Under the pieces are notes generated by a model. The model was not told the origin of the DNA. It saw nothing but the letters and a program-made list of their open reading frames with translations, and ran no database searches. Positions 1,844-54,441 of a DNA stretch of 64,000 nucleotides are shown in pieces. Where the stretch lies: assembly GCF_030384885.1 (NCBI RefSeq), contig NZ_CP128614.1. One strand, written 5' to 3'. Numbering within the stretch: the first letter of the stretch is position 1; each line of letters starts with the position of its first letter. Position numbers and translations under genes: made by a program. Source of the stretch: Escherichia coli (GTDB taxonomy: Bacteria; Pseudomonadota; Gammaproteobacteria; Enterobacterales; Enterobacteriaceae).

Positions 1844-3997
1844 GGGTATAGGAAGTATAAACCACCTTTTTGCTCCTCATCCGAAGTATCTTACCTGAAA
1901 TTCCCTCACTCGTTTACCGCTCAAGCCCCAATTTTAACTGCCGGTCCAGCCTAAACCGCTCTAATAAGGTTCGATTTGGCGGTAAAATCTCTAGCCTGAT
2001 AGCTCGAGAGATACAAACTGCCCCACCGCCCCGTTTAAAAGTTGGCAGTGTTGAGCAGTGTTGGATTTGGGGTCGTCAGTCAAAGAGACGACTCTGTGAT
2101 GGATCGAACAGGCTGGGAGTCAGTGGCGGCGCTCGTTCTGGTGGCAGCTCACGCTGCTTGGCGGCATTCGCCTTGGCTGTTTTCTGTTTCAGATGCTTGA
2201 GAATCTGCTCAATGACCTTCGGATCTTCGATGCTGGCAATCACTTTGACGTGACCGCCGCAGTGTTCGCAGACTTCAATATCAATATTGAAGACTCGCTT
2301 GAGGCGTTGCATCCAGGTCATGGCGCGGTGGCGCTCTGCAGGACTCTTGTCACGCCAGTTAGTATCGAGACCTTCCGATTTGTCGGGCTTCTTGCCCCGC
2401 TTGGCGGGTGTTACTTGAACTCGGTGTTTGCTGTTCGGTGCAAAGACGCCGTGGAAGCGTGTGAGGTTGACTCGCGGCTTAGGTACCAACGCAGCGAGTT
2501 TGGCGATGAAGTCCAGCGGCTCGAAGATCACATGGGTGGTGCCATTGCGGTACGGAGTTTTGAGCTCGTAACGCACCTGCCCATTGGCGGTTAATGCCAG
2601 ACGTTTTTCTGAAACCGCTGGCCGACTAATGTAGCGACACAAGCGCTCAAGCTTATCCCGCTGATGCGCTTCGGCCATCACACCGGCGTGTAGCGAGAAA
2701 CCAGCATGGTTGGCTACTCGACTGCTTGAGTCGGCTTTATCCTCACGCCCTGGCAAGGTTTGCAGGGTGAAGACTTTGCGCCCTTGCTGGGGGCCGACGG
2801 CAATGCGATACGTAACCGAAGCACCATGTAATTGAGTCAGCGTATCGTCTTCGCCCTCTTCCAGTGTCAACCACGTATTCTCGGCATCACGCTCCAAAAT
2901 CCCACGCTTTTCCATGCAGCGAGCGATGCGATGGCTGAGGGTGTGAGCGAGCGTATTCAGCTCATCGTAAGTGGGTGCCTTGACACGATGGAAGCGTTGC
3001 TTGCCATAGTCATCTTCGGCATAGACACCATCGAGAAACAGCATGTGGTAGTGGACATTGAGATTTAGCGCGGAGCCAAAGCGTTGGATAAGAGTCACTG
3101 AGCCAGTTTGTGCAGAGGCTTTGGTGTAACCGGCTTTTTTGATCAGATGAGTTGAGAGTGTACGATAGACGATACTCAAGACCTGGCCCATCAGCTGGGG
3201 ATGGCGAGCCAGCAAAAAGCGTAGCTGGAAAGGAAAGCTGAGCACCCACTGGCGAATGGGCTCCTTGGGGAAGACTTCGTCTATCAGCAGCGCCGCACTC
3301 TCGGCCATCCGGCGGGCACCGCAGCTAGGGCAAAAGCCGCGTCGTTTACAGCTGAAGGCGACCAGACGCTCGTGATGACAATCCTCGCAGCGAACCCGCA
3401 TGAAACCATACTCCAGACGGCCACATTGGAGGAGGTCGTTGAATTCTTGTTGGATGTAGCGAGGCAGGTGTTGACCTTGGGCTTCGAGTGAGGCTTTGAA
3501 GGCTGGGTAGTGCTGCTCAACCAGCTGGTAGAGCAGCGTCTGGTCGGGTTGGTGGCGTTCGTAACCGTTTGTTTGAGTGGGCGATTGACTCGCCGTGGCG
3601 TTCCTTGCCAGCGACATGGGTATCCTCCGCTGATACTGTGGTTATGTACAGTATCAGCGGCTTGCGTTCAGACGTCCAGTCTGGCCCTAGACATCGCTAA
3701 ATGCTTAACCCGCAATAGCCCTCACGAGTTGTTATCAGCCACTACCGGTTGAGCGAGAAGGTTTTGGGTTCAGGGTGCTATTGCTCCACCAATCACAATA
3801 CTGAAGCCCCAACTGTTATCAGTTGGGGCTTTTTCTTGTCTGTTTGCGGCGGTTGCGTTTTATCGGTAGTCGTCGAGCTCTGCACCATCCCACATAAGAG
3901 CTTAACGGTGCGATCTTCAACGCCATCACACAAAACTTTCTTTTTCACGCACAGTCAACTTATTGGATGTTTTATTAACAACCCAAAAGGAGATATT
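1844..3997 (-). mobile_element. ISCR1: ISCR1 (IS91-like rolling-circle element); boundaries approximate
   Basis: Contains the 513-aa orf513 transposase; oriIS-like end (GGTTTATACTTCCTATACCC on the element strand) near 1844; placed immediately downstream of sul1 as in complex class 1 integrons. Confidence 0.8.
2076..3617 (-). CDS. ISCR1 transposase (orf513)
   Basis: 513-aa ORF beginning MSLARNATASQSPTQTNGYERHQPDQ…, matching the ISCR1 Orf513 protein as recalled. Confidence 0.93.
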   Translation of the reverse strand: MSLARNATASQSPTQTNGYERHQPDQTLLYQLVEQHYPAFKASLEAQGQHLPRYIQQEFNDLLQCGRLEYGFMRVRCEDCHHERLVAFSCKRRGFCPSCGARRMAESAALLIDEVFPKEPIRQWVLSFPFQLRFLLARHPQLMGQVLSIVYRTLSTHLIKKAGYTKASAQTGSVTLIQRFGSALNLNVHYHMLFLDGVYAEDDYGKQRFHRVKAPTYDELNTLAHTLSHRIARCMEKRGILERDAENTWLTLEEGEDDTLTQLHGASVTYRIAVGPQQGRKVFTLQTLPGREDKADSSSRVANHAGFSLHAGVMAEAHQRDKLERLCRYISRPAVSEKRLALTANGQVRYELKTPYRNGTTHVIFEPLDFIAKLAALVPKPRVNLTRFHGVFAPNSKHRVQVTPAKRGKKPDKSEGLDTNWRDKSPAERHRAMTWMQRLKRVFNIDIEVCEHCGGHVKVIASIEDPKVIEQILKHLKQKTAKANAAKQRELPPERAPPLTPSLFDPSQSRLFD

Positions 3998-4021: not shown

Positions 4022-4861
4022 CTAGGCATGATCTAACCCTCGGTCTCTGGCGTCGCGACTGCGAAATTTCGCGAGGGTTTCCGAGAAGGTGATTGCGCTT
4101 CGCAGATCTCCAGGCGCGTGGGTGCGGACGTAGTCAGCGCCATTGCCGATCGCGTGAAGTTCCGCCGCAAGGCTCGCTGGACCCAGATCCTTTACAGGAA
4201 GGCCAACGGTGGCGCCCAAGAAGGATTTCCGCGACACCGAGACCAATAGCGGAAGCCCCAACGCCGACTTCAGCTTTTGAAGGTTCGACAGCACGTGCAG
4301 CGATGTTTCCGGTGCGGGGCTCAAGAAAAATCCCATCCCCGGATCGAGGATGAGCCGGTCGGCAGCGACCCCGCTCCGTCGCAAGGCGGAAACCCGCGCC
4401 TCGAAGAACCGCACAATCTCGTCGAGCGCGTCTTCGGGTCGAAGGTGACCGGTGCGGGTGGCGATGCCATCCCGCTGCGCTGAGTGCATAACCACCAGCC
4501 TGCAGTCCGCCTCAGCAATATCGGGATAGAGCGCAGGGTCAGGAAATCCTTGGATATCGTTCAGGTAGCCCACGCCGCGCTTGAGCGCATAGCGCTGGGT
4601 TTCCGGTTGGAAGCTGTCGATTGAAACACAGTGCATCTGATCGGACAGGGCGTCTAAGAGCGGCGCAATACGTCTGATCTCATCGGCCGGCGATACAGGC
4701 CTCGCGTCCGGATGGCTGGCGGCCGGTCCGACATCCACGACGTCTGATCCGACTCGCAGCATTTCGATCGCCGCGGTGACAGCGCCGGCGGGGTCTAGCC
4801 GCCGGCTCTCATCGAAGAAGGAGTCCTCGGTGAGATTCAGAATGCCGAACACCGTCACCAT
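4022..4861 (-). CDS. sul1: Sulfonamide-resistant dihydropteroate synthase Sul1
   Basis: Translation from the internal Met ([23 protein letters not shown]…) is Sul1; the ORF-track start at 4948 is an upstream extension. Confidence 0.95.
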
Positions 4862-5202
4862 GGCGTCGGCCTCCGCAGCGACTTCCACGATGGGGATCGG
4901 GCGAGCAAAAAGGCAGCAATTATGAGCCCCATACCTACAAAGCCCCACGCATCAAGCTTTTGCCCATGAAGCAACCAGGCAATGGCTGTAATTATGACGA
5001 CGCCGAGTCCCGACCAGACTGCATAAGCAACACCGACAGGGATGGATTTCAGAACCAGAGAAAGAAAATAAAATGCGATGCCATAACCGATTATGACAAC
5101 GGCGGAAGGGGCAAGCTTAGTAAAGCCCTCGCTAGATTTTAATGCGGATGTTGCGATTACTTCGCCAACTATTGCGATAACAAGAAAAAGCCAGCCTTTC
5201 AT
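4855..5202 (-). CDS. qacEdelta1: Truncated SMR quaternary-ammonium efflux protein QacEdelta1 (3'-conserved segment)
   Basis: 115-aa [30 protein letters not shown]… abutting the sul1 start. Confidence 0.95.
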
Positions 5203-6564: not shown

Positions 6565-7062
6565 TTAGCCGTTTCGACGCGCATAAACGGAGTGGGTGTA
6601 CGGAATTACAGCTTGAATGGTTTCGGTTGAGACAAGCTCGAATTCTGTTTCGTTGAGCATTGGGAAGAAGGCGTCACCCTCGAAGGTTTGATGTACCTCA
6701 GATAGAAACACGCCGTGGGCGTGAGGTAGTGCCAGAGTGTATATCTCAGCTCCGCCCGCGACGTAGAGTTCATTGCCGAGTTCGGATGCCAAAGCGATAG
6801 CGTGCGACAGCGTTGAAACAACTACGCAGCCAGTGGCGCGGTAGTTAGCTTGGCGTGAGATTACCAATGTGTGACGGTTCGGTAGAGGCTTGCCGATAGA
6901 CTCAAAGGTCTTTCGCCCCATGACAACGACTTTTCCCTCAGTGAGTCTGCGAAAAATCTTCTGCTCACCCGGAATTTTCCAGGGGATATTAGGACCATTG
7001 CCAATAACCCGATTGGCTCCCATCGCAGCAACGAGATAAATGCGTACTGATTCCGAGTTCAT
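6565..7062 (-). CDS. dfrA12: Trimethoprim-resistant dihydrofolate reductase DfrA12
   Basis: 165-aa ORF MNSESVRIYLVAAMGANRVIGNGPNIPWKIPGEQKIFRRLTEGKVVVMGRKTF…, recognised as DfrA12. Confidence 0.92.
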   Translation of the reverse strand: MNSESVRIYLVAAMGANRVIGNGPNIPWKIPGEQKIFRRLTEGKVVVMGRKTFESIGKPLPNRHTLVISRQANYRATGCVVVSTLSHAIALASELGNELYVAGGAEIYTLALPHAHGVFLSEVHQTFEGDAFFPMLNETEFELVSTETIQAVIPYTHSVYARRNG

Positions 7063-7063
7063 A

Positions 7064-7135
7064 TGGCTAACTTTGTTTTAGGGCGACTGCCCTGCTGCGT
7101 AACATCGTTGCTGCTCCATAACATCAAACATCGAC
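7064..7135 (-). other. attI1 recombination site / first-cassette boundary (approximate)
   Basis: …CTAAAACAAAGTTAGCC followed by the dfrA12 ATG on the cassette strand, between Pc/intI1 and the first cassette. Confidence 0.5.
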
Positions 7136-7206
7136 CCACGGCGTAACGCGCTTGCTGCTTGGATGCCCGAGGCATAGACTGTACAAAAAAACAGTCATAA
7201 CAAGCC

Positions 7207-8075
7207 ATGAAAACCGCCACTGCGCCGTTACCACCGCTGCGTTCGGTCAAGGTTCTGGACCAGTTGCGTGAGCGCATACGCTACTTGCATTACAGCTTAC
7301 CAACCGAACAGGCTTATGTCCACTGGGTTCGTGCCTTCATCCGTTTCCACGGTGTGCGTCACCCGGCAACCTTGGGCAGCAGCGAAGTCGAGGCATTTCT
7401 GTCCTGGCTGGCGAACGAGCGCAAGGTTTCGGTCTCCACGCATCGTCAGGCATTGGCGGCCTTGCTGTTCTTCTACGGCAAGGTGCTGTGCACGGATCTG
7501 CCCTGGCTTCAGGAGATCGGAAGACCTCGGCCGTCGCGGCGCTTGCCGGTGGTGCTGACCCCGGATGAAGTGGTTCGCATCCTCGGTTTTCTGGAAGGCG
7601 AGCATCGTTTGTTCGCCCAGCTTCTGTATGGAACGGGCATGCGGATCAGTGAGGGTTTGCAACTGCGGGTCAAGGATCTGGATTTCGATCACGGCACGAT
7701 CATCGTGCGGGAGGGCAAGGGCTCCAAGGATCGGGCCTTGATGTTACCCGAGAGCTTGGCACCCAGCCTGCGCGAGCAGCTGTCGCGTGCACGGGCATGG
7801 TGGCTGAAGGACCAGGCCGAGGGCCGCAGCGGCGTTGCGCTTCCCGACGCCCTTGAGCGGAAGTATCCGCGCGCCGGGCATTCCTGGCCGTGGTTCTGGG
7901 TTTTTGCGCAGCACACGCATTCGACCGATCCACGGAGCGGTGTCGTGCGTCGCCATCACATGTATGACCAGACCTTTCAGCGCGCCTTCAAACGTGCCGT
8001 AGAACAAGCAGGCATCACGAAGCCCGCCACACCGCACACCCTCCGCCACTCGTTCGCGACGGCCTTGCTCCGCAG
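7207..8075 (+). pseudogene. intI1: intI1 truncated at its 3' end by IS26
   Basis: N-terminal ~289 aa of IntI1 ([44 protein letters not shown]…) run into the IS26 inverted repeat at 8076. Confidence 0.9.
7294..7322 (-). promoter_or_regulatory. Pc: Integron cassette promoter Pc, variant PcW with TGN-extended -10
   Basis: On the cassette strand: TGGACA, 17-bp spacer, then TGG-TAAGCT; the corresponding intI1 codon 32 encodes Pro (IntI1 P32/H39). Confidence 0.75.
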
Positions 8076-8895
8076 GGCACTGTTGCAAAGTTAGCGATGA
8101 GGCAGCCTTTTGTCTTATTCAAAGGCCTTACATTTCAAAAACTCTGCTTACCAGGCGCATTTCGCCCAGGGGATCACCATAATAAAATGCTGAGGCCTGG
8201 CCTTTGCGTAGTGCACGCATCACCTCAATACCTTTGATGGTGGCGTAAGCCGTCTTCATGGATTTAAATCCCAGCGTGGCGCCGATTATCCGTTTCAGTT
8301 TGCCATGATCGCATTCAATCACGTTGTTCCGGTACTTAATCTGTCGGTGTTCAACGTCAGACGGGCACCGGCCTTCGCGTTTGAGCAGAGCAAGCGCGCG
8401 ACCATAGGCGGGCGCTTTATCCGTGTTGATGAATCGCGGGATCTGCCACTTCTTCACGTTGTTGAGGATTTTACCCAGAAACCGGTATGCAGCTTTGCTG
8501 TTACGACGGGAGGAGAGATAAAAATCGACAGTGCGGCCCCGGCTGTCGACGGCCCGGTACAGATACGCCCAGCGGCCATTGACCTTCACGTAGGTTTCAT
8601 CCATGTGCCACGGGCAAAGATCGGAAGGGTTACGCCAGTACCAGCGCAGCCGTTTTTCCATTTCAGGCGCATAACGCTGAACCCAGCGGTAAATCGTGGA
8701 GTGATCGACATTCACTCCGCGTTCAGCCAGCATCTCCTGCAGCTCACGGTAACTGATGCCGTATTTGCAGTACCAGCGTACGGCCCACAGAATGATGTCA
8801 CGCTGAAAATGCCGGCCTTTGAATGGGTTCATGTGCAGCTCCATCAGCAAAAGGGGATGATAAGTTTATCACCACCGACTATTTGCAACAGTGCC
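8076..8895 (-). mobile_element. IS26: IS26 (820 bp), wild-type transposase allele
   Basis: 14-bp terminal inverted repeats GGCACTGTTGCAAA at 8076-8089 and 8882-8895; no flanking target-site duplication. Confidence 0.95.
8128..8832 (-). CDS. tnpA26: IS26 transposase Tnp26 (Gly184)
   Basis: Translation MNPFKGRHFQRDIILWAVRWYCKYGISYRELQ… with …KRIIGATLGF…. Confidence 0.95.
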   Translation of the reverse strand: MNPFKGRHFQRDIILWAVRWYCKYGISYRELQEMLAERGVNVDHSTIYRWVQRYAPEMEKRLRWYWRNPSDLCPWHMDETYVKVNGRWAYLYRAVDSRGRTVDFYLSSRRNSKAAYRFLGKILNNVKKWQIPRFINTDKAPAYGRALALLKREGRCPSDVEHRQIKYRNNVIECDHGKLKRIIGATLGFKSMKTAYATIKGIEVMRALRKGQASAFYYGDPLGEMRLVSRVFEM

Positions 8896-12448: not shown

Positions 12449-13268
12449 GGCACTGTTGCAAAGTTAGCGATGAGGCAGCCTTTTGTCTTATTCAAAGGCC
12501 TTACATTTCAAAAACTCTGCTTACCAGGCGCATTTCGCCCAGGGGATCACCATAATAAAATGCTGAGGCCTGGCCTTTGCGTAGTGCACGCATCACCTCA
12601 ATACCTTTGATGGTGGCGTAAGCCGTCTTCATGGATTTAAATCCCAGCGTGGCGTTGATTATCCGTTTCAGTTTGCCATGATCGCATTCAATCACGTTGT
12701 TCCGGTACTTAATCTGTCGGTGTTCAACGTCAGACGGGCACCGGCCTTCGCGTTTGAGCAGAGCAAGCGCGCGACCATAGGCGGGCGCTTTATCCGTGTT
12801 GATGAATCGCGGGATCTGCCACTTCTTCACGTTGTTGAGGATTTTACCCAGAAACCGGTATGCAGCTTTGCTGTTACGACGGGAGGAGAGATAAAAATCG
12901 ACAGTGCGGCCCCGGCTGTCGACGGCCCGGTACAGATACGCCCAGCGGCCATTGACCTTCACGTAGGTTTCATCCATGTGCCACGGGCAAAGATCGGAAG
13001 GGTTACGCCAGTACCAGCGCAGCCGTTTTTCCATTTCAGGCGCATAACGCTGAACCCAGCGGTAAATCGTGGAGTGATCGACATTCACTCCGCGTTCAGC
13101 CAGCATCTCCTGCAGCTCACGGTAACTGATGCCGTATTTGCAGTACCAGCGTACGGCCCACAGAATGATGTCACGCTGAAAATGCCGGCCTTTGAATGGG
13201 TTCATGTGCAGCTCCATCAGCAAAAGGGGATGATAAGTTTATCACCACCGACTATTTGCAACAGTGCC
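12449..13268 (-). mobile_element. IS26: IS26 variant copy (820 bp) with Tnp26 G184N
   Basis: Same terminal repeats at 12449-12462 and 13255-13268; differs from the copy at 8076-8895 by GG to AA in codon 184. Confidence 0.93.
12501..13205 (-). CDS. tnpA26: IS26 transposase, G184N allele
   Basis: Translation identical to the first copy except …KRIINATLGF…. Confidence 0.93.
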   Translation of the reverse strand: MNPFKGRHFQRDIILWAVRWYCKYGISYRELQEMLAERGVNVDHSTIYRWVQRYAPEMEKRLRWYWRNPSDLCPWHMDETYVKVNGRWAYLYRAVDSRGRTVDFYLSSRRNSKAAYRFLGKILNNVKKWQIPRFINTDKAPAYGRALALLKREGRCPSDVEHRQIKYRNNVIECDHGKLKRIINATLGFKSMKTAYATIKGIEVMRALRKGQASAFYYGDPLGEMRLVSRVFEM

Positions 13269-13662: not shown

Positions 13663-14019
13663 TTATTTATCTTTCACCGGGTTCATTTCCCAGTATCTTT
13701 CACGTACGTTTTCTTGGCAATGGTCCGCTCGCTCCGGCGTGTCCCTTTTACGAGTAGCAAATGCTTCAATTACGGCATTCAAGTCTTTTTCTTTGATTTT
13801 AGATCCAACAGGCAAGTTTTCTTCAAACTCAGTCCTTACCAGTTCTTTCGTTTTTTTATAATCGGTTTCACTTTGGATTTCAGGTTTTAAACAAATATCG
13901 GCAACCATCACATCTGATTTGCCCGGGATCGGTTTTTTCCCGTTTTCAGATGCAAGGACCGCAGAGGAGGTAAAGGCGACAGACAGAGTTGCACATAACA
14001 GAAGGTATTTTAATTTCAT
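13663..14019 (-). CDS. Hypothetical secreted protein (signal peptide)
   Basis: 118-aa ORF with N-terminal signal sequence MKLKYLLLCATLSVAFTSSAVLA. Confidence 0.5.
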   Translation of the reverse strand: MKLKYLLLCATLSVAFTSSAVLASENGKKPIPGKSDVMVADICLKPEIQSETDYKKTKELVRTEFEENLPVGSKIKEKDLNAVIEAFATRKRDTPERADHCQENVRERYWEMNPVKDK

Positions 14020-14168: not shown

Positions 14169-14786
14169 TCAGGGGGAAATCAGATTGTTGTCGACCCAGT
14201 ACTTGTGCAAACCTACCACCCAATTCCTGGAAATGGACGAAAGTTCATGCGCCAGTTCACGACAGCATTCAGGCGTAAAAATACGTATGGGTCCTGAAGT
14301 ACCGATATCAACAGACATGATAAACTCCAGAATGTTGCCATGGCATAGGTTGTTTCTCAGCCTGACAATTTCTGCTTCAGGTGTTCTCCCGGCTGCTACC
14401 TTAACCAACATATCCTGCTCGGCTGGAAATGAAAGTAATTCTACCGGCACCCCTTCCTGCTTGGCCTTTCTCAGTAAGGCATTACTCATTACGGAGATAC
14501 CCTCCAAGTCCACCAGCTCAGGAGCTGCATGCTGATCGTTAACTGTTGGTTTCAGCATCAGCGACTTCAACGTAACCATGAGTGATGTTTCAATCCCGTT
14601 CAGGAAGCTCGTACAGGCCGGTATCCATAGTTCGTGATGCAACGCCTCGGTTGCTTGTTTAAAGAACCAGTCAATCACGGGGACAGTGTGATAATCATAA
14701 TAGTGATTTATCTCGCTGAATCTTGACATATAAGCATCGTACTCAGCCTGGTCTTCAGGAGATAAAAAATTTGGTGGGAGGGGCAT
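14169..14786 (-). CDS. Hypothetical protein
   Basis: 205-aa ORF, no recognised motif. Confidence 0.45.
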   Translation of the reverse strand: MPLPPNFLSPEDQAEYDAYMSRFSEINHYYDYHTVPVIDWFFKQATEALHHELWIPACTSFLNGIETSLMVTLKSLMLKPTVNDQHAAPELVDLEGISVMSNALLRKAKQEGVPVELLSFPAEQDMLVKVAAGRTPEAEIVRLRNNLCHGNILEFIMSVDIGTSGPIRIFTPECCRELAHELSSISRNWVVGLHKYWVDNNLISP

Positions 14787-14940
14787 CAGAATCCTTTCAT
14801 CCTAGCTTGTATACCTTCTTCGTAGGCCAGCTCGCCATTATCGGTAAAAGATGGTTTTTGGTGTTTGTGACAAAGCTTAATTTTTCGTCAGGCTCGATAG
14901 CGTTACCGGAGAGATTTGATCTTTTCTCTGTAACTCGCAA

Positions 14941-14960
14941 TACTGTTTATACATACAGTA
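14941..14960 (+). promoter_or_regulatory. LexA (SOS) box upstream of the umuD-like gene
   Basis: TACTGTTTATACATACAGTA: perfect CTGT-N8-ACAG palindrome 20 bp upstream of the 14980 start codon. Confidence 0.75.
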
Positions 14961-14979
14961 TGAGAATTCGAGTGTAGCT

Positions 14980-15414
14980 ATGTCTGTTATCCTTGAGCAC
15001 ATTAGCAACAAGCCTTACGAAATGGCACCTTTTTTCAGTGATTTACTGAGCTGTGGAGTGATGAGTCCGTGCGCCGGGCATGAAGATAATGAATTAAATT
15101 TGCATGAATATGTAGTCCGTAACCGCCCCTCAACCTTCTTTGTCAGGGCGGCGGGCCTCAGTATGATCAATGCCGGTATCAATGATGGCGCTATTCTGGT
15201 TGTGGATCGGTCTTTAACGGCACGACACGGCTCTATCGTCGTTGCGCTGGTGGATGGAGAGTTCACGGTAAAGATCTTACACACGTATCCTGAGCTGCTT
15301 TTGATGCCTTCTAATCCAGCCTATAAGCCGATACGTGTAAATCCCGAATCCCTTGAGATATGGGGCGTCGTCACCTTTGCACTGAATCAGTTTAGCCATG
15401 TACATGCACGTTGA
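14980..15414 (+). CDS. umuD: UmuD/MucA-like SOS mutagenesis protein (S24 LexA-like self-cleaving peptidase)
   Basis: 144-aa ORF with a Cys-Gly cleavage dipeptide near residue 25 and an S24 serine motif (GLSMINAG). Confidence 0.8.
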   Translation: MSVILEHISNKPYEMAPFFSDLLSCGVMSPCAGHEDNELNLHEYVVRNRPSTFFVRAAGLSMINAGINDGAILVVDRSLTARHGSIVVALVDGEFTVKILHTYPELLLMPSNPAYKPIRVNPESLEIWGVVTFALNQFSHVHAR

Positions 15415-16657
15415 TATTAACGGGGCCTATGCGGCATTTGAGTGTGCGATGGATCCCAAGCTGGCAAAAAAGCCGCTCATCATAGCCAGCAATAACGATT
15501 CGTCCGTCATTGCAATGAATAAACTGGCTAAAAGCGTTGGTATTAAGCGTGGGACCCCAATTTTTAAGTGCAGGGATTTGATTCAGCAACACCAGATCGA
15601 AGTCCGGAGCTCTAACTTTACTTTGTATGAAGACTACTCAAATCGCTTCCATGAAACGCTGGAAAGCTTCGCGCCTCAATCGAGTCGATATAGCATAGAT
15701 GAAAATTTCATGTTATTGAAAAACATGAACAAGATAATAGATTATGAAGATTACGGCCGGTTGATCAGAAGTACACTTCTTCATAATCTGTCCCTTACCT
15801 GTGGTGTGGGGTGTTCAAGCACCAAAACCCTGGCTAAATTATGCACCTATGCGAGCAAACGATGGGCAGCTACAGGCGGGGTTGTAGTTTTGACTGATCA
15901 GGCCAGGATCAGGAAGCTCCTGGGCCTTATCAGTACCAGAGAAATATGGGGTATTGGTCAAAAGATCAGTGAACGCCTGTCGGCTTTCGGGATCATCACT
16001 GCCGGTGATTTTTATAATAGCGACGTTCGCTTTTTACGTAAAAGCTTTGGCGTTGAAATCGAGCGTACCTGGCGGGAACTGCATGGCGAACCATGTTTCC
16101 GGCTGCATGAATCCCCTCCTGTCCGGCAACAGATTATCGTTTCCAGAAGTTTTGGTCAGCGCCTTAATGAGATAGGCAAGCTACATGAGGCAGTTTCATT
16201 TTTTACCGCCCGGGCGGCAGAGCAGCTGCGCAAGGATGGCTCGTGGACCCGTCAAATCACAGTCTTCATTCAGAGCAGCAATTATGCGCAAGGTGAAAAC
16301 CGCTACAGCAATTGTGGTATCGAGCCGCTTACCGCTACACAGGACACCCGCGATCTGGTTGATGCAGCCATGACCATCCTGAACCGCATTTACAAACCCG
16401 GGATAGCGTATGCGAAAGCTGGGGTAATGCTCTCCGCTATGACTGACGGCACAGAGCAACTCAGCCTGTTTGATGAGCGCCCGGCCAGGCCTGGCAGTCA
16501 GGCACTGATGAAAGTTATGGACCGGTTCAATAAAGAAAAGCGCGGAGCTCTGTTTTTGCTGGGGGAAGGCATTCAACAGGATTTTCGTATGAAACAGGCC
16601 ATGCTATCACCGAGATATACGACCCGCTGGGATGAATTACTCGTTGTAAAAGCGTAG
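15398..16657 (+). CDS. umuC: UmuC/MucB-like Y-family translesion DNA polymerase
   Basis: 419-aa ORF overlapping umuD by a few codons; N-terminus (DINGAYAAFEC…PLIIASNND) is Y-family-like. Confidence 0.8.
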   Translation: MYMHVDINGAYAAFECAMDPKLAKKPLIIASNNDSSVIAMNKLAKSVGIKRGTPIFKCRDLIQQHQIEVRSSNFTLYEDYSNRFHETLESFAPQSSRYSIDENFMLLKNMNKIIDYEDYGRLIRSTLLHNLSLTCGVGCSSTKTLAKLCTYASKRWAATGGVVVLTDQARIRKLLGLISTREIWGIGQKISERLSAFGIITAGDFYNSDVRFLRKSFGVEIERTWRELHGEPCFRLHESPPVRQQIIVSRSFGQRLNEIGKLHEAVSFFTARAAEQLRKDGSWTRQITVFIQSSNYAQGENRYSNCGIEPLTATQDTRDLVDAAMTILNRIYKPGIAYAKAGVMLSAMTDGTEQLSLFDERPARPGSQALMKVMDRFNKEKRGALFLLGEGIQQDFRMKQAMLSPRYTTRWDELLVVKA

Positions 16658-16693
16658 CGGCCATGACCGGCATGGCCGTACTCATCAAAAGTG

Positions 16694-17618: not shown

Positions 17619-18230
17619 ATGATTAGGCAGGGCTTTATACTCACAACCGCAATGCTTTTGAGTGGTTGTGGATATCATTTCGCAAACCAGGTAGATGCGT
17701 ACGATCTAATGCCTCGTCCTGTTACAAATAAAAGGTTTCAGATAGTCCCTCCGGACGAAAGTATTCAGTCCAGAATGTTTTCAGGCCGTTTTGCTGATGG
17801 ATTAGCAAAAAAAGGAGTCATTATTTCCACTCACCAGCCAGATTATGTGCTCAGGTTCCGAATGAGCAGCTCACAGGAGAACATGCAGTATAGCGAGCAG
17901 CTTCTTACTGGGGTGACAGGCTACGTTGTAGATAAAAAGACAACGAGAACTGACAAGCATGGCGAATCGCATACTGACTATGACTACAGGCCGGTCGATG
18001 GGGTAATAGGCACTGAGACGATGTCGCAGATGCACTATATGCGACAGCTGGATGTCGAGGTATACCCGTCAGCGAAAGGAGCAAAGCAGGTTCTGAAAGT
18101 GAGTATGCAAAGCAATGCACCTGTGCCGTCAGACAGCATTGCTTATTCAGCAATGATCGACGCCTTTACTGATAAATTTGATGCGCCGCTGCGTTCCGGA
18201 AATTATGTTGCAGTGATCCCCTGGAACTGA
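17619..18230 (+). CDS. Putative lipoprotein
   Basis: 203-aa ORF with lipobox (LLSGC) after a short signal peptide. Confidence 0.5.
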   Translation: MIRQGFILTTAMLLSGCGYHFANQVDAYDLMPRPVTNKRFQIVPPDESIQSRMFSGRFADGLAKKGVIISTHQPDYVLRFRMSSSQENMQYSEQLLTGVTGYVVDKKTTRTDKHGESHTDYDYRPVDGVIGTETMSQMHYMRQLDVEVYPSAKGAKQVLKVSMQSNAPVPSDSIAYSAMIDAFTDKFDAPLRSGNYVAVIPWN

Positions 18231-53589: not shown

Positions 53590-54441
53590 TTAAACACGAG
53601 GCATATAGGTCTGATTCCGATATTCAATTGGAGTCAGACCTTTTAATTTCAGGCTAATTCTTCTGCTGTTGTAGTATTCAATATATTCCGTAACAGCATC
53701 CTTCAGCTCGCTTATATTACTGAACTCATCAAGATAAAAACACTCCGACTTTAAGGTTCCAAAGAAACACTCCACCACAGCATTATCCAGACAATTGCCT
53801 TTTCTGGACATGCTTTGTTTAATACCATGTTCTTTAAGGATATTTTGATATCTTCTCATACGATACTGCCATCCCTGGTCAGAGTGCAGAACAGGATGCT
53901 CGTGAGGATTAAGCTTTTTGAATGCCTGATCGAGCATATTCTCGACCATGTTCATCACTGGTCTTTCCGAAAGGCTGTAAGAAATAACTTCGTTGTTGAA
54001 GAGATCTATTACTGGAGACAAATACAGCTTGCGCCCATTGACTGCAAATTCAGTAACATCGGTAACCCACTTCTCGTTTGGCCGCGTAGCCTTGAAATCT
54101 CTTTGGAGAACATTGGGGGCGGTTTGCCCTACCTCTCCTCTGTAAGAGCGGTATCGCTTGACCTTAATCGCTGCCTTCAGTGAGAGGATTCCCATCAGGC
54201 GCTGAACAGCTTTATGGTTAATCTGTTTCCCTTCTCGATGAAGAGACAGCGTTACCCTACGGTATCCGTATCGGCCTCTATTCTCATGATAAATCTCACC
54301 AATACGCTTTTTAACGTCCGCATACTTGTCAGGCTTGCTGAGAGCCTTTAGATGGTAATAAAACGTACTGCGCGGTATCTCCGCAGCCCTGAGAAGCTCA
54401 TCAAGAGGATAAAACTGCCTTAGCTCGTTGAGTACTTTCAC
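53590..54441 (-). CDS. insK: IS150 OrfB (InsK-like DDE integrase domain; OrfAB made by -1 frameshift)
   Basis: 283-aa ORF overlapping orfA by 4 bp in the -1 frame. Confidence 0.9.

Follow-up and report, generated by a model that had tools for sequence, protein, structure and literature searches.

A predicted LexA-controlled Pol V-type operon in the conserved backbone of IncHI2 plasmids

Introduction

Error-prone polymerases of the UmuDC/MucAB type are repressed by LexA, whose self-cleavage is triggered by RecA filaments, and the dimer of cut UmuD then joins the polymerase subunit. In the chromosomal umuDC operon of E. coli, umuD lies before umuC and a single strong LexA box is found just upstream, with the hexamer TTGATC placed 17–19 nt before this box. 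Its products carry a Cys-Gly cleavage site and a Ser/Lys dyad (UmuD) as well as the residues D6, Y11, D101 and E102 and a clamp motif (UmuC). A plasmid-borne Pol V homologue with overlapping genes is the mucAB operon of pKM101/R46 (IncN; pol RI), the promoter of which has the layout TTGCCA-16 nt-GATACT with a -10 hexamer fused to the LexA box. All of these sequence features have counterparts in the plasmid operon described here, apart from the MucA cleavage site, which is Ala-Gly and not Cys-Gly.

Other SOS-linked mutagenic polymerases on conjugative elements include rumAB of R391/SXT and impCAB of IncI1 plasmids (PMC9262582, PMC11602152, PMC8460599). These systems differ from the operon studied here in that a third gene is part of impCAB and element-encoded regulators add to the control of rumAB, neither of which we see in our case. 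According to one of these studies, native R391 is poorly mutagenic since factors encoded on the element suppress rumAB, which is a strong mutator when cloned (PMC8460599). A LexA box alone is therefore no guarantee of a mutator phenotype.

In Salmonella, E. coli and Enterobacter, much of the carriage of resistance genes, mcr-1 and ESBL genes among them, is due to IncHI2 plasmids. Their backbone functions are known to include "the mutagenesis induction system (mucAB)" (PMC6206278), the operon is also named in the context of the IncHI2 backbone elsewhere (PMC5955447), and the mucAB or umu genes serve as landmarks for the insertion site of resistance regions (PMC9599605, PMC5955447). The "mucAB" genes of the R478/IncHI2 backbone are the same locus as the operon analyzed here, without any difference, and NCBI PGAP annotates the gene pair as umuD/umuC on IncHI2A/MOBH/MPF_F examples. 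In the searchable literature, we found neither a description of the LexA box and promoter footprint of this operon nor an experiment on the function or induction of IncHI umuDC, and the genes appear there only as landmarks or as a backbone module.

Results and discussion

Two intact and coupled genes of Pol V type

A preliminary description of a 64-kb stretch of DNA (the window, for short) had proposed a plasmid-borne umuDC-like operon with an upstream LexA box at positions 14941–16657, and this interval opens precisely with the box and closes with the stop codon of the umuC-like gene (Table 1). The replicon is typed as IncHI2A, MOBH and MPF_F and thus as a conjugative plasmid, in agreement with the proposed location. 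Both open reading frames are intact, and their products score above the NCBIfam cut-offs for Pol V proteins.

Table 1. Coordinates of the operon and its proposed control elements in the window.
Feature	Position	Strand	Basis
Probable -35 hexamer TTGATC	14916–14921	+	Conservation; putative promoter role
Probable -10 hexamer AATACT (GATACT in relatives)	14939–14944	+	Conservation; putative
LexA operator (SOS box) TACTGTTTATACATACAGTA	14941–14960	+	Exact match, weight-matrix score, conservation; binding predicted
GAGTG, weak ribosome-binding site 5 nt ahead of the ATG	14970–14974	+	Read from the sequence; putative
umuD-like gene, 144 aa, S24 self-cleaving subunit	14980–15414	+	ORF, Pfam, NCBIfam, alignment
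umuC-like gene, 419 aa, catalytic subunit (Y-family polymerase)	15398–16657	+	ORF, Pfam, NCBIfam, alignment
G+C-rich hairpin where the umuC-like and dsbA-like genes converge	16654–16681	.	Folding

The ATG of the umuD-like gene is the earliest possible start after the upstream stop codon, and the motif CGAGTGT around its weak ribosome-binding site is common to IncHI2 and IncHI1B plasmids. The encoded protein matches the Pfam family Peptidase_S24 (PF00717; 2e-24, 86 bits) and belongs to the NCBIfam family of the autoproteolytic Pol V subunit (PRK10276; 129.8 bits with a cut-off of 110), and among solved structures it aligns best with UmuD and UmuD' (8gmt, 1umu). Residues Cys25-Gly26, Ser61 and Lys98 align with the Cys24-Gly25 cleavage site, Ser60 and Lys97 of UmuD, which holds for these structures as well as for sequence alignments to UmuD and MucA, and they are invariant among six members of the clade described below. 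We rejected an assignment as a HumD-type translesion factor, for which the protein scores 69.3 bits with a cut-off of 120 (NCBIfam NF051876).

The umuC-like gene comes next in the same orientation, and its first 17 nt overlap the end of the umuD-like gene. Its start at 15398 is supported by the N-terminal sequence MYMHVD, which is common to the relatives; one record annotates the start at 15404. All three Pfam domains IMS (PF00817), IMS_C (PF11799) and DUF4113 (PF13438) match the protein, and with 464.7 bits it clears the cut-off of 431 of NCBIfam PRK03609 and falls into this family. The models of Pol IV, in turn, all remain far under their cut-offs, and we discarded that assignment. The catalytic residues D6, D101 and E102, the steric-gate residue Y11 and the clamp motif QLSLF (residues 354–358) are present and conserved. 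No inactivating change was found in the cleavage machinery or in the polymerase motifs, the latter being a point on which the preliminary description had made its proposal depend. A sequence search of the PDB for a UmuC structure returned only chains of Pol IV, Dpo4, iota and kappa and no UmuC chain.

The coding regions of IncHI2 and IncHI1B plasmids are 75–76% identical, with a non-synonymous divergence of 0.10–0.11. Synonymous changes between the two are saturated in both genes, with 70 of 102 sites changed in the umuD-like gene, for which dN/dS is 0.06, and 219 of 286 sites changed in the umuC-like gene, for which dN is 0.10. Both coding regions are thus under strong purifying selection. 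The hairpin downstream of the operon folds with -18.8 kcal/mol (z = -2.7), and its position is taken by another hairpin, unlike it in sequence, in the IncHI1B plasmid. Tentatively, this element could be a bidirectional terminator; the + strand shows no clear U-run.

A strong LexA box overlapping a putative promoter

The sequence TACTGTTTATACATACAGTA occurs once in the window and in none of 100 shuffles. It had been called a perfect LexA box 20 bp upstream of the umuD-like start, which is accurate for its arms (TACTG...CAGTA) and for its place just upstream of the gene. Over its full length, however, the box matches the idealized palindrome TACTG(TA)5CAGTA at 18 of 20 positions, with a T at position 7 and a C at position 12 as the deviations. 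The box of E. coli umuDC reaches an equal number of matches. The gap to the start codon is 19 nt, a trivial difference.

We scored LexA sites with a symmetrized weight matrix built from 17 published sites, of which those of umuDC and mucAB were verified against fetched DNA. With 26.6 bits, the box is the top site of the whole window and as strong as the strongest SOS boxes of E. coli, given 26.7 bits for dinD and 26.3 bits for umuDC, and next to 26.1 bits for mucAB. The second-best site in the window reaches 18.2 bits, and no site in 30 shuffled versions of it exceeds 18.6 bits. The box is of the gammaproteobacterial type (CTGT-N8-ACAG) and overlaps the putative promoter, which marks the operon at the sequence level as a candidate member of the SOS regulon. 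This pattern is found five times in the window with 0.62 occurrences expected, an excess that is due to the LexA-type boxes of the operon, ISCR1 and intI1. At 54010, within the ORF of an IS3-family transposase, there is another LexA-like site, which we took as a chance match because its 17.6 bits are below the shuffle maximum.

For a phylogenetic footprint, we fetched the loci of a second IncHI2 lineage (98.6% UmuC identity), an IncHI1B plasmid (84%) and four metagenome or isolate contigs (67–72%), resulting in a set of seven upstream regions (two from IncHI2, one from IncHI1B and four from the relatives with 67–72% UmuC identity). Only two upstream blocks are invariant in all seven, namely TTTGATCTTT (14915–14924), of which TTGATC forms the core, and, 16 variable bases further on, ATACTG-N10-CAGT. 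The motif ATACT and its spacing to TTGATC are fixed in 7/7 sequences, the bases flanking the -35 block vary, and most of the upstream intergenic region cannot even be aligned between IncHI2 and IncHI1B. Positions in the center of the box are variable across the relatives, as is typical of LexA boxes, and the IncHI1B box carries a symmetric two-sided change from CTGT...ACAG to CTGG...CCAG that preserves the palindrome. Among the seven sequences, the upstream region holds no conserved block beyond the -35 element and the LexA box and thus no sign of a second operator.

The simplest reading of these blocks is that the operon probably has a promoter of the form TTGATC-17 nt-(A/G)ATACT, with the -10 hexamer, which shares 4 nt with the LexA box, and the start site within the box. 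Bound LexA would thereby exclude RNA polymerase. A consensus promoter scan reported no promoter at the box because the hexamers are weak (8 of 12 positions matched). We discarded a divergent ORF of 205 aa (14169–14786) as a possible partner under common control: It lies ca. 155 bp from the box, the intervening DNA is not conserved in IncHI1B, and distant relatives have other genes in its place.

A backbone module next to a resistance region

The 2.2-kb stretch around the operon is 95–100% identical in 945 plasmids of PLSDB, 899 of which cover at least 80% of it and 934 of which are typed as conjugative. More than 500 IncHI2 plasmids, among them pSTM6-275 and pXGE1mcr, carry it at 100% identity, and the PLSDB hosts (Escherichia, Enterobacter, Salmonella, Klebsiella and Citrobacter) are all Enterobacterales. 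Among complete E. coli genomes, 229 of 5426 (ca. 4%) contain the stretch, with 232 of 236 copies located on plasmids.

In all relatives that we fetched, the order umuD-umuC ... DsbA-like ... 203-aa lipoprotein is kept, and the operon adjoins transfer-associated genes (DsbA-like, lipoprotein, TraP and TraG) in every one of them. Since this order is shared by IncHI2, IncHI1B and more distant relatives, the operon is a module of an IncH-like backbone and lies outside the resistance region. The preliminary description had placed it alongside this region, and the distance is indeed short: The resistance region, which comprises mph(A)-mrx-mphR, integron cassettes, sul1 and ISCR1, stops at an IS26 right end at 13268, 1.7 kb upstream of the box. 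However, this closeness stems from nearby IS26-mediated insertions, and the operon itself is part of the conserved IncHI backbone. PADLOC returned no match for the UmuD-like and UmuC-like proteins and three neighboring hypothetical proteins. An Rfam search of the whole window reported only an attI/AAC_AAD_leader element at 7039–7117 and nothing near the operon.

A distinct IncH branch of the Pol V family

The proteins of the window are 41–42% (UmuD) and 47–48% (UmuC) identical to those of E. coli and 48% (MucA) and 45% (MucB) identical to those of pKM101/R46. The genes overlap by 17 nt, compared with 1 nt for E. coli umuDC, and unlike the latter they are plasmid-borne. As the window proteins are no closer to MucAB than to UmuDC, we rejected their placement in the MucAB (pol RI) orthologue group; judging from these identities, the name "mucAB" for the IncHI2 operon is one by analogy only.

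In a search of 5.8 billion proteins, the UmuC-like protein has a clade of relatives with 100% down to 67% identity followed by a drop to at most 51%, and this clade is a single cluster in a library clustered at 50% identity. By these sequence comparisons, IncH-type Pol V forms a branch of its own within the Pol V family. All members share the motif DIN(G/R/S)AYAAFE, in which Ala10 stands beside the steric-gate Tyr11, and they also carry Arg70 and Phe74. Ala10, Arg70 and Phe74 correspond to F10, F70 and Y74 of E. coli UmuC and to F/M, F and Y in the other compared proteins. These three residues are not unique to the clade but minority states among 150 related cluster representatives (counted over motif matches). 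At position 10, 126 of 136 matches have Phe and 3 have Ala, with two more Ala among sequences missing the pattern. At position 70, Phe is found in 83 and Arg in 14 of 139 matches, and at position 74, 101 of 139 have Tyr and 36 have Phe.

The F10L variant of E. coli UmuC shows higher fidelity and sugar selectivity (PMC3401427). Because one substitution alters both properties there, Ala10 might tune fidelity or sugar selection in the IncH enzymes, which is speculation and the only mildly novel angle of this locus. That IncH-type Pol V is biochemically distinct, with Ala10 altering its error rate or ribonucleotide use and the operon, under LexA control on the main plasmid family that carries mcr-1 and ESBL genes, measurably speeding up resistance evolution of the host, is an idea that we consider rather unlikely.

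Proposed mechanism and alternative readings

We consider it highly likely that the locus is a functional, LexA-repressed operon for a Pol V-type translesion polymerase that belongs to the IncHI plasmid backbone. The preliminary reading as a LexA-controlled Pol V-type operon agrees with what the sequence has to offer, with operator, promoter elements, coupled reading frames, intact residues, conservation and purifying selection all in place. Binding and cleavage of LexA, induction, lesion bypass and mutagenesis are expected by analogy to the paradigms of E. coli UmuDC and pKM101 MucAB. In undamaged cells, a dimer of host LexA would sit on the box, cover the -10 hexamer and transcription start, and block RNA polymerase. 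DNA damage, e.g., by quinolones, or incoming single-stranded DNA would give rise to RecA filaments that trigger LexA self-cleavage and so allow transcription of the operon, with translation of umuC presumably coupled to that of umuD through their overlap. On the RecA filament, the UmuD-like protein would be cut between Cys25 and Gly26 by its own Ser61/Lys98 dyad, and the shortened dimer is predicted to assemble with the UmuC-like polymerase, RecA-ATP and, via QLSLF, the beta clamp for low-fidelity copying past lesions. Points that speak against this view are the weak promoter hexamers, the identity of only 45–48% to MucB and UmuC, and the clade-specific A10, R70 and F74 near the active site. 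The main caveat is R391 rumAB, which shows that a Pol V on a mobile element may be almost silent in its native setting (PMC8460599).

An alternative is that the operon is SOS-regulated and active but selected for damage tolerance or plasmid survival, e.g., gap filling after conjugative entry or survival of DNA damage in the host, so that the mutation supply to the host from the native plasmid may be small and possibly damped by plasmid or host factors. The operon sits in the backbone beside transfer-associated genes in every relative and not in the resistance region, strong purifying selection over a long divergence suggests that the plasmid benefits, and the contrast of poorly mutable native R391 with the strong mutator activity of cloned rumAB sets a precedent (PMC8460599). 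However, the footprint gives no sign of a second operator. Nothing else that we found contradicts this alternative, which shares ground with the main explanation instead of displacing it; we regard it as possible at a somewhat low probability.

Inactive relics, i.e., a crippled polymerase or a UmuD-like protein that cannot be cleaved, could account for the unusual A10, R70 and F74, but this is very improbable for two intact ORFs with all catalytic and cleavage residues present, a dN/dS of ca. 0.06 and products above curated NCBIfam cut-offs, the more so as the three residues are fixed across the clade of 67–100% identity and also occur in other cluster representatives. It is similarly hard to believe that the palindrome arose by chance or serves a plasmid-encoded regulator other than LexA, for which we found nothing specific: the chance expectation is 0, the score equals that of the best E. 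coli LexA sites, the LexA-specific arms TACTG...CAGT are conserved around a variable center, the position before a umuDC-type operon is that seen for E. coli umuDC and mucAB, and this is the LexA motif used by Enterobacterales, to which all hosts belong.

A functional LexA-repressed Pol V-type operon in the plasmid backbone would provide hosts with a second, SOS-inducible and error-prone Pol V that is switched on by quinolones and other DNA-damaging drugs. With two other LexA-controlled promoters nearby, those of the ISCR1 transposase and of intI1, the plasmid would thus extend the SOS regulon of its host. The feature itself is ordinary, already known and routinely annotated, and nothing about it is new in kind; the residual value of this analysis is a clean phylogenetic footprint of promoter and operator in a widespread clade.

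Other LexA-type boxes in the window

The resistance region contains two further LexA-type boxes, and the operon is located 8–11 kb from the corresponding LexA-controlled promoters of the ISCR1 transposase and intI1. One of them, GACTGTACAAAAAAACAGTC (7177–7196), lies upstream of intI1 and corresponds to the LexA site known for class 1 integrases. The intI1 integrase ORF runs into IS26 at 8076 in this plasmid and encodes only 295 aa. The other box, TACTGTGGTTATGTACAGTA (3634–3653), is found 16 nt upstream of the start of the ISCR1 transposase, and LexA binding and SOS control have recently been shown for this site (bioRxiv 10.1101/2025.11.21.689736).

LexA-type sites across the window

The pattern CTGT-N8-ACAG occurs five times in the whole window versus 0.62 expected, and three of these sites are the boxes of umuDC (14941-14960) and of ISCR1 and intI1 (Table), while the centres of the remaining two, at 18121 and 35766, are G+C-rich. 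TACTGTGGTTATGTACAGTA upstream of ISCR1 (orf513/rcr1) is a second good LexA-type box, and a 2025 preprint describes the ISCR1 transposase promoter as bound by LexA and the transposase as SOS-induced (bioRxiv 10.1101/2025.11.21.689736).

The class 1 integron also contains the single Rfam match of the whole window, an AAC_AAD_leader / attI element. GACTGTACAAAAAAACAGTC before intI1 is the LexA site known from class 1 integrases. An IS26 copy (8076-8895) interrupts the 3' end of the intI1 ORF, leaving only 295 aa; the SOS-controlled promoter therefore drives a truncated integrase here.

One further candidate, TACTGGAGACAAATACAGCT inside an IS3-family transposase ORF, scores below the top score from shuffled sequence and is probably a chance occurrence.

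Start and promoter of umuDC

The annotated start of umuC varies by record, with MYMHVD at 15398 in most and MHVD at 15404 in pME-1a; we favour 15398 because MYMHVD is conserved in relatives. When the umuDC promoter region was compared with two PLSDB plasmids (H107, NZ_ON960334.1; H108, NZ_CP036311.1), only bases 1-37 or 38-86 of the query matched, and the break in the match coincides exactly with the LexA box's left edge (window 14941/14942). The position of this break suggests an insertion or rearrangement that parted the -35 element from the box and gene in some plasmids.

Genes next to umuDC

Two backbone ORFs of 205 and 118 aa, divergent from umuDC, are without match in Pfam, NCBIfam or PADLOC. 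The related IncHI1B plasmid has similar-sized ORFs at the same positions and on the same strand, though the N-terminus of the 205-aa ORF differs between the two, and more distant relatives carry different genes in their place. In the most distant clade member (L009; UmuC 67% identical), umuDC with its LexA box has a SRAP-domain gene immediately upstream and a PLD-like gene on its downstream side, and these genes may together form a small DNA-damage gene cluster.

Table. LexA-type boxes, associated ORFs and umuDC neighbours (window positions unless marked L009)
Feature	Position	Strand	Details
ISCR1 transposase ORF	2076-3617	-	
LexA-type box TACTGTGGTTATGTACAGTA	3634-3653		16 nt upstream of ISCR1 start; 18.2 bits
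AAC_AAD_leader / attI	7039-7117	-	71.2 bits (Rfam)
LexA-type box GACTGTACAAAAAAACAGTC	7177-7196		10 nt before intI1 start
intI1 integrase ORF	7207-8094	+	
118-aa ORF	13663-14019	-	
205-aa ORF	14169-14786	-	
LexA-like site TACTGGAGACAAATACAGCT	54010-54029		17.6 bits
SRAP-domain gene	1763-2431 (L009)		abasic-site processing family
PLD-like gene	4331-5113 (L009)
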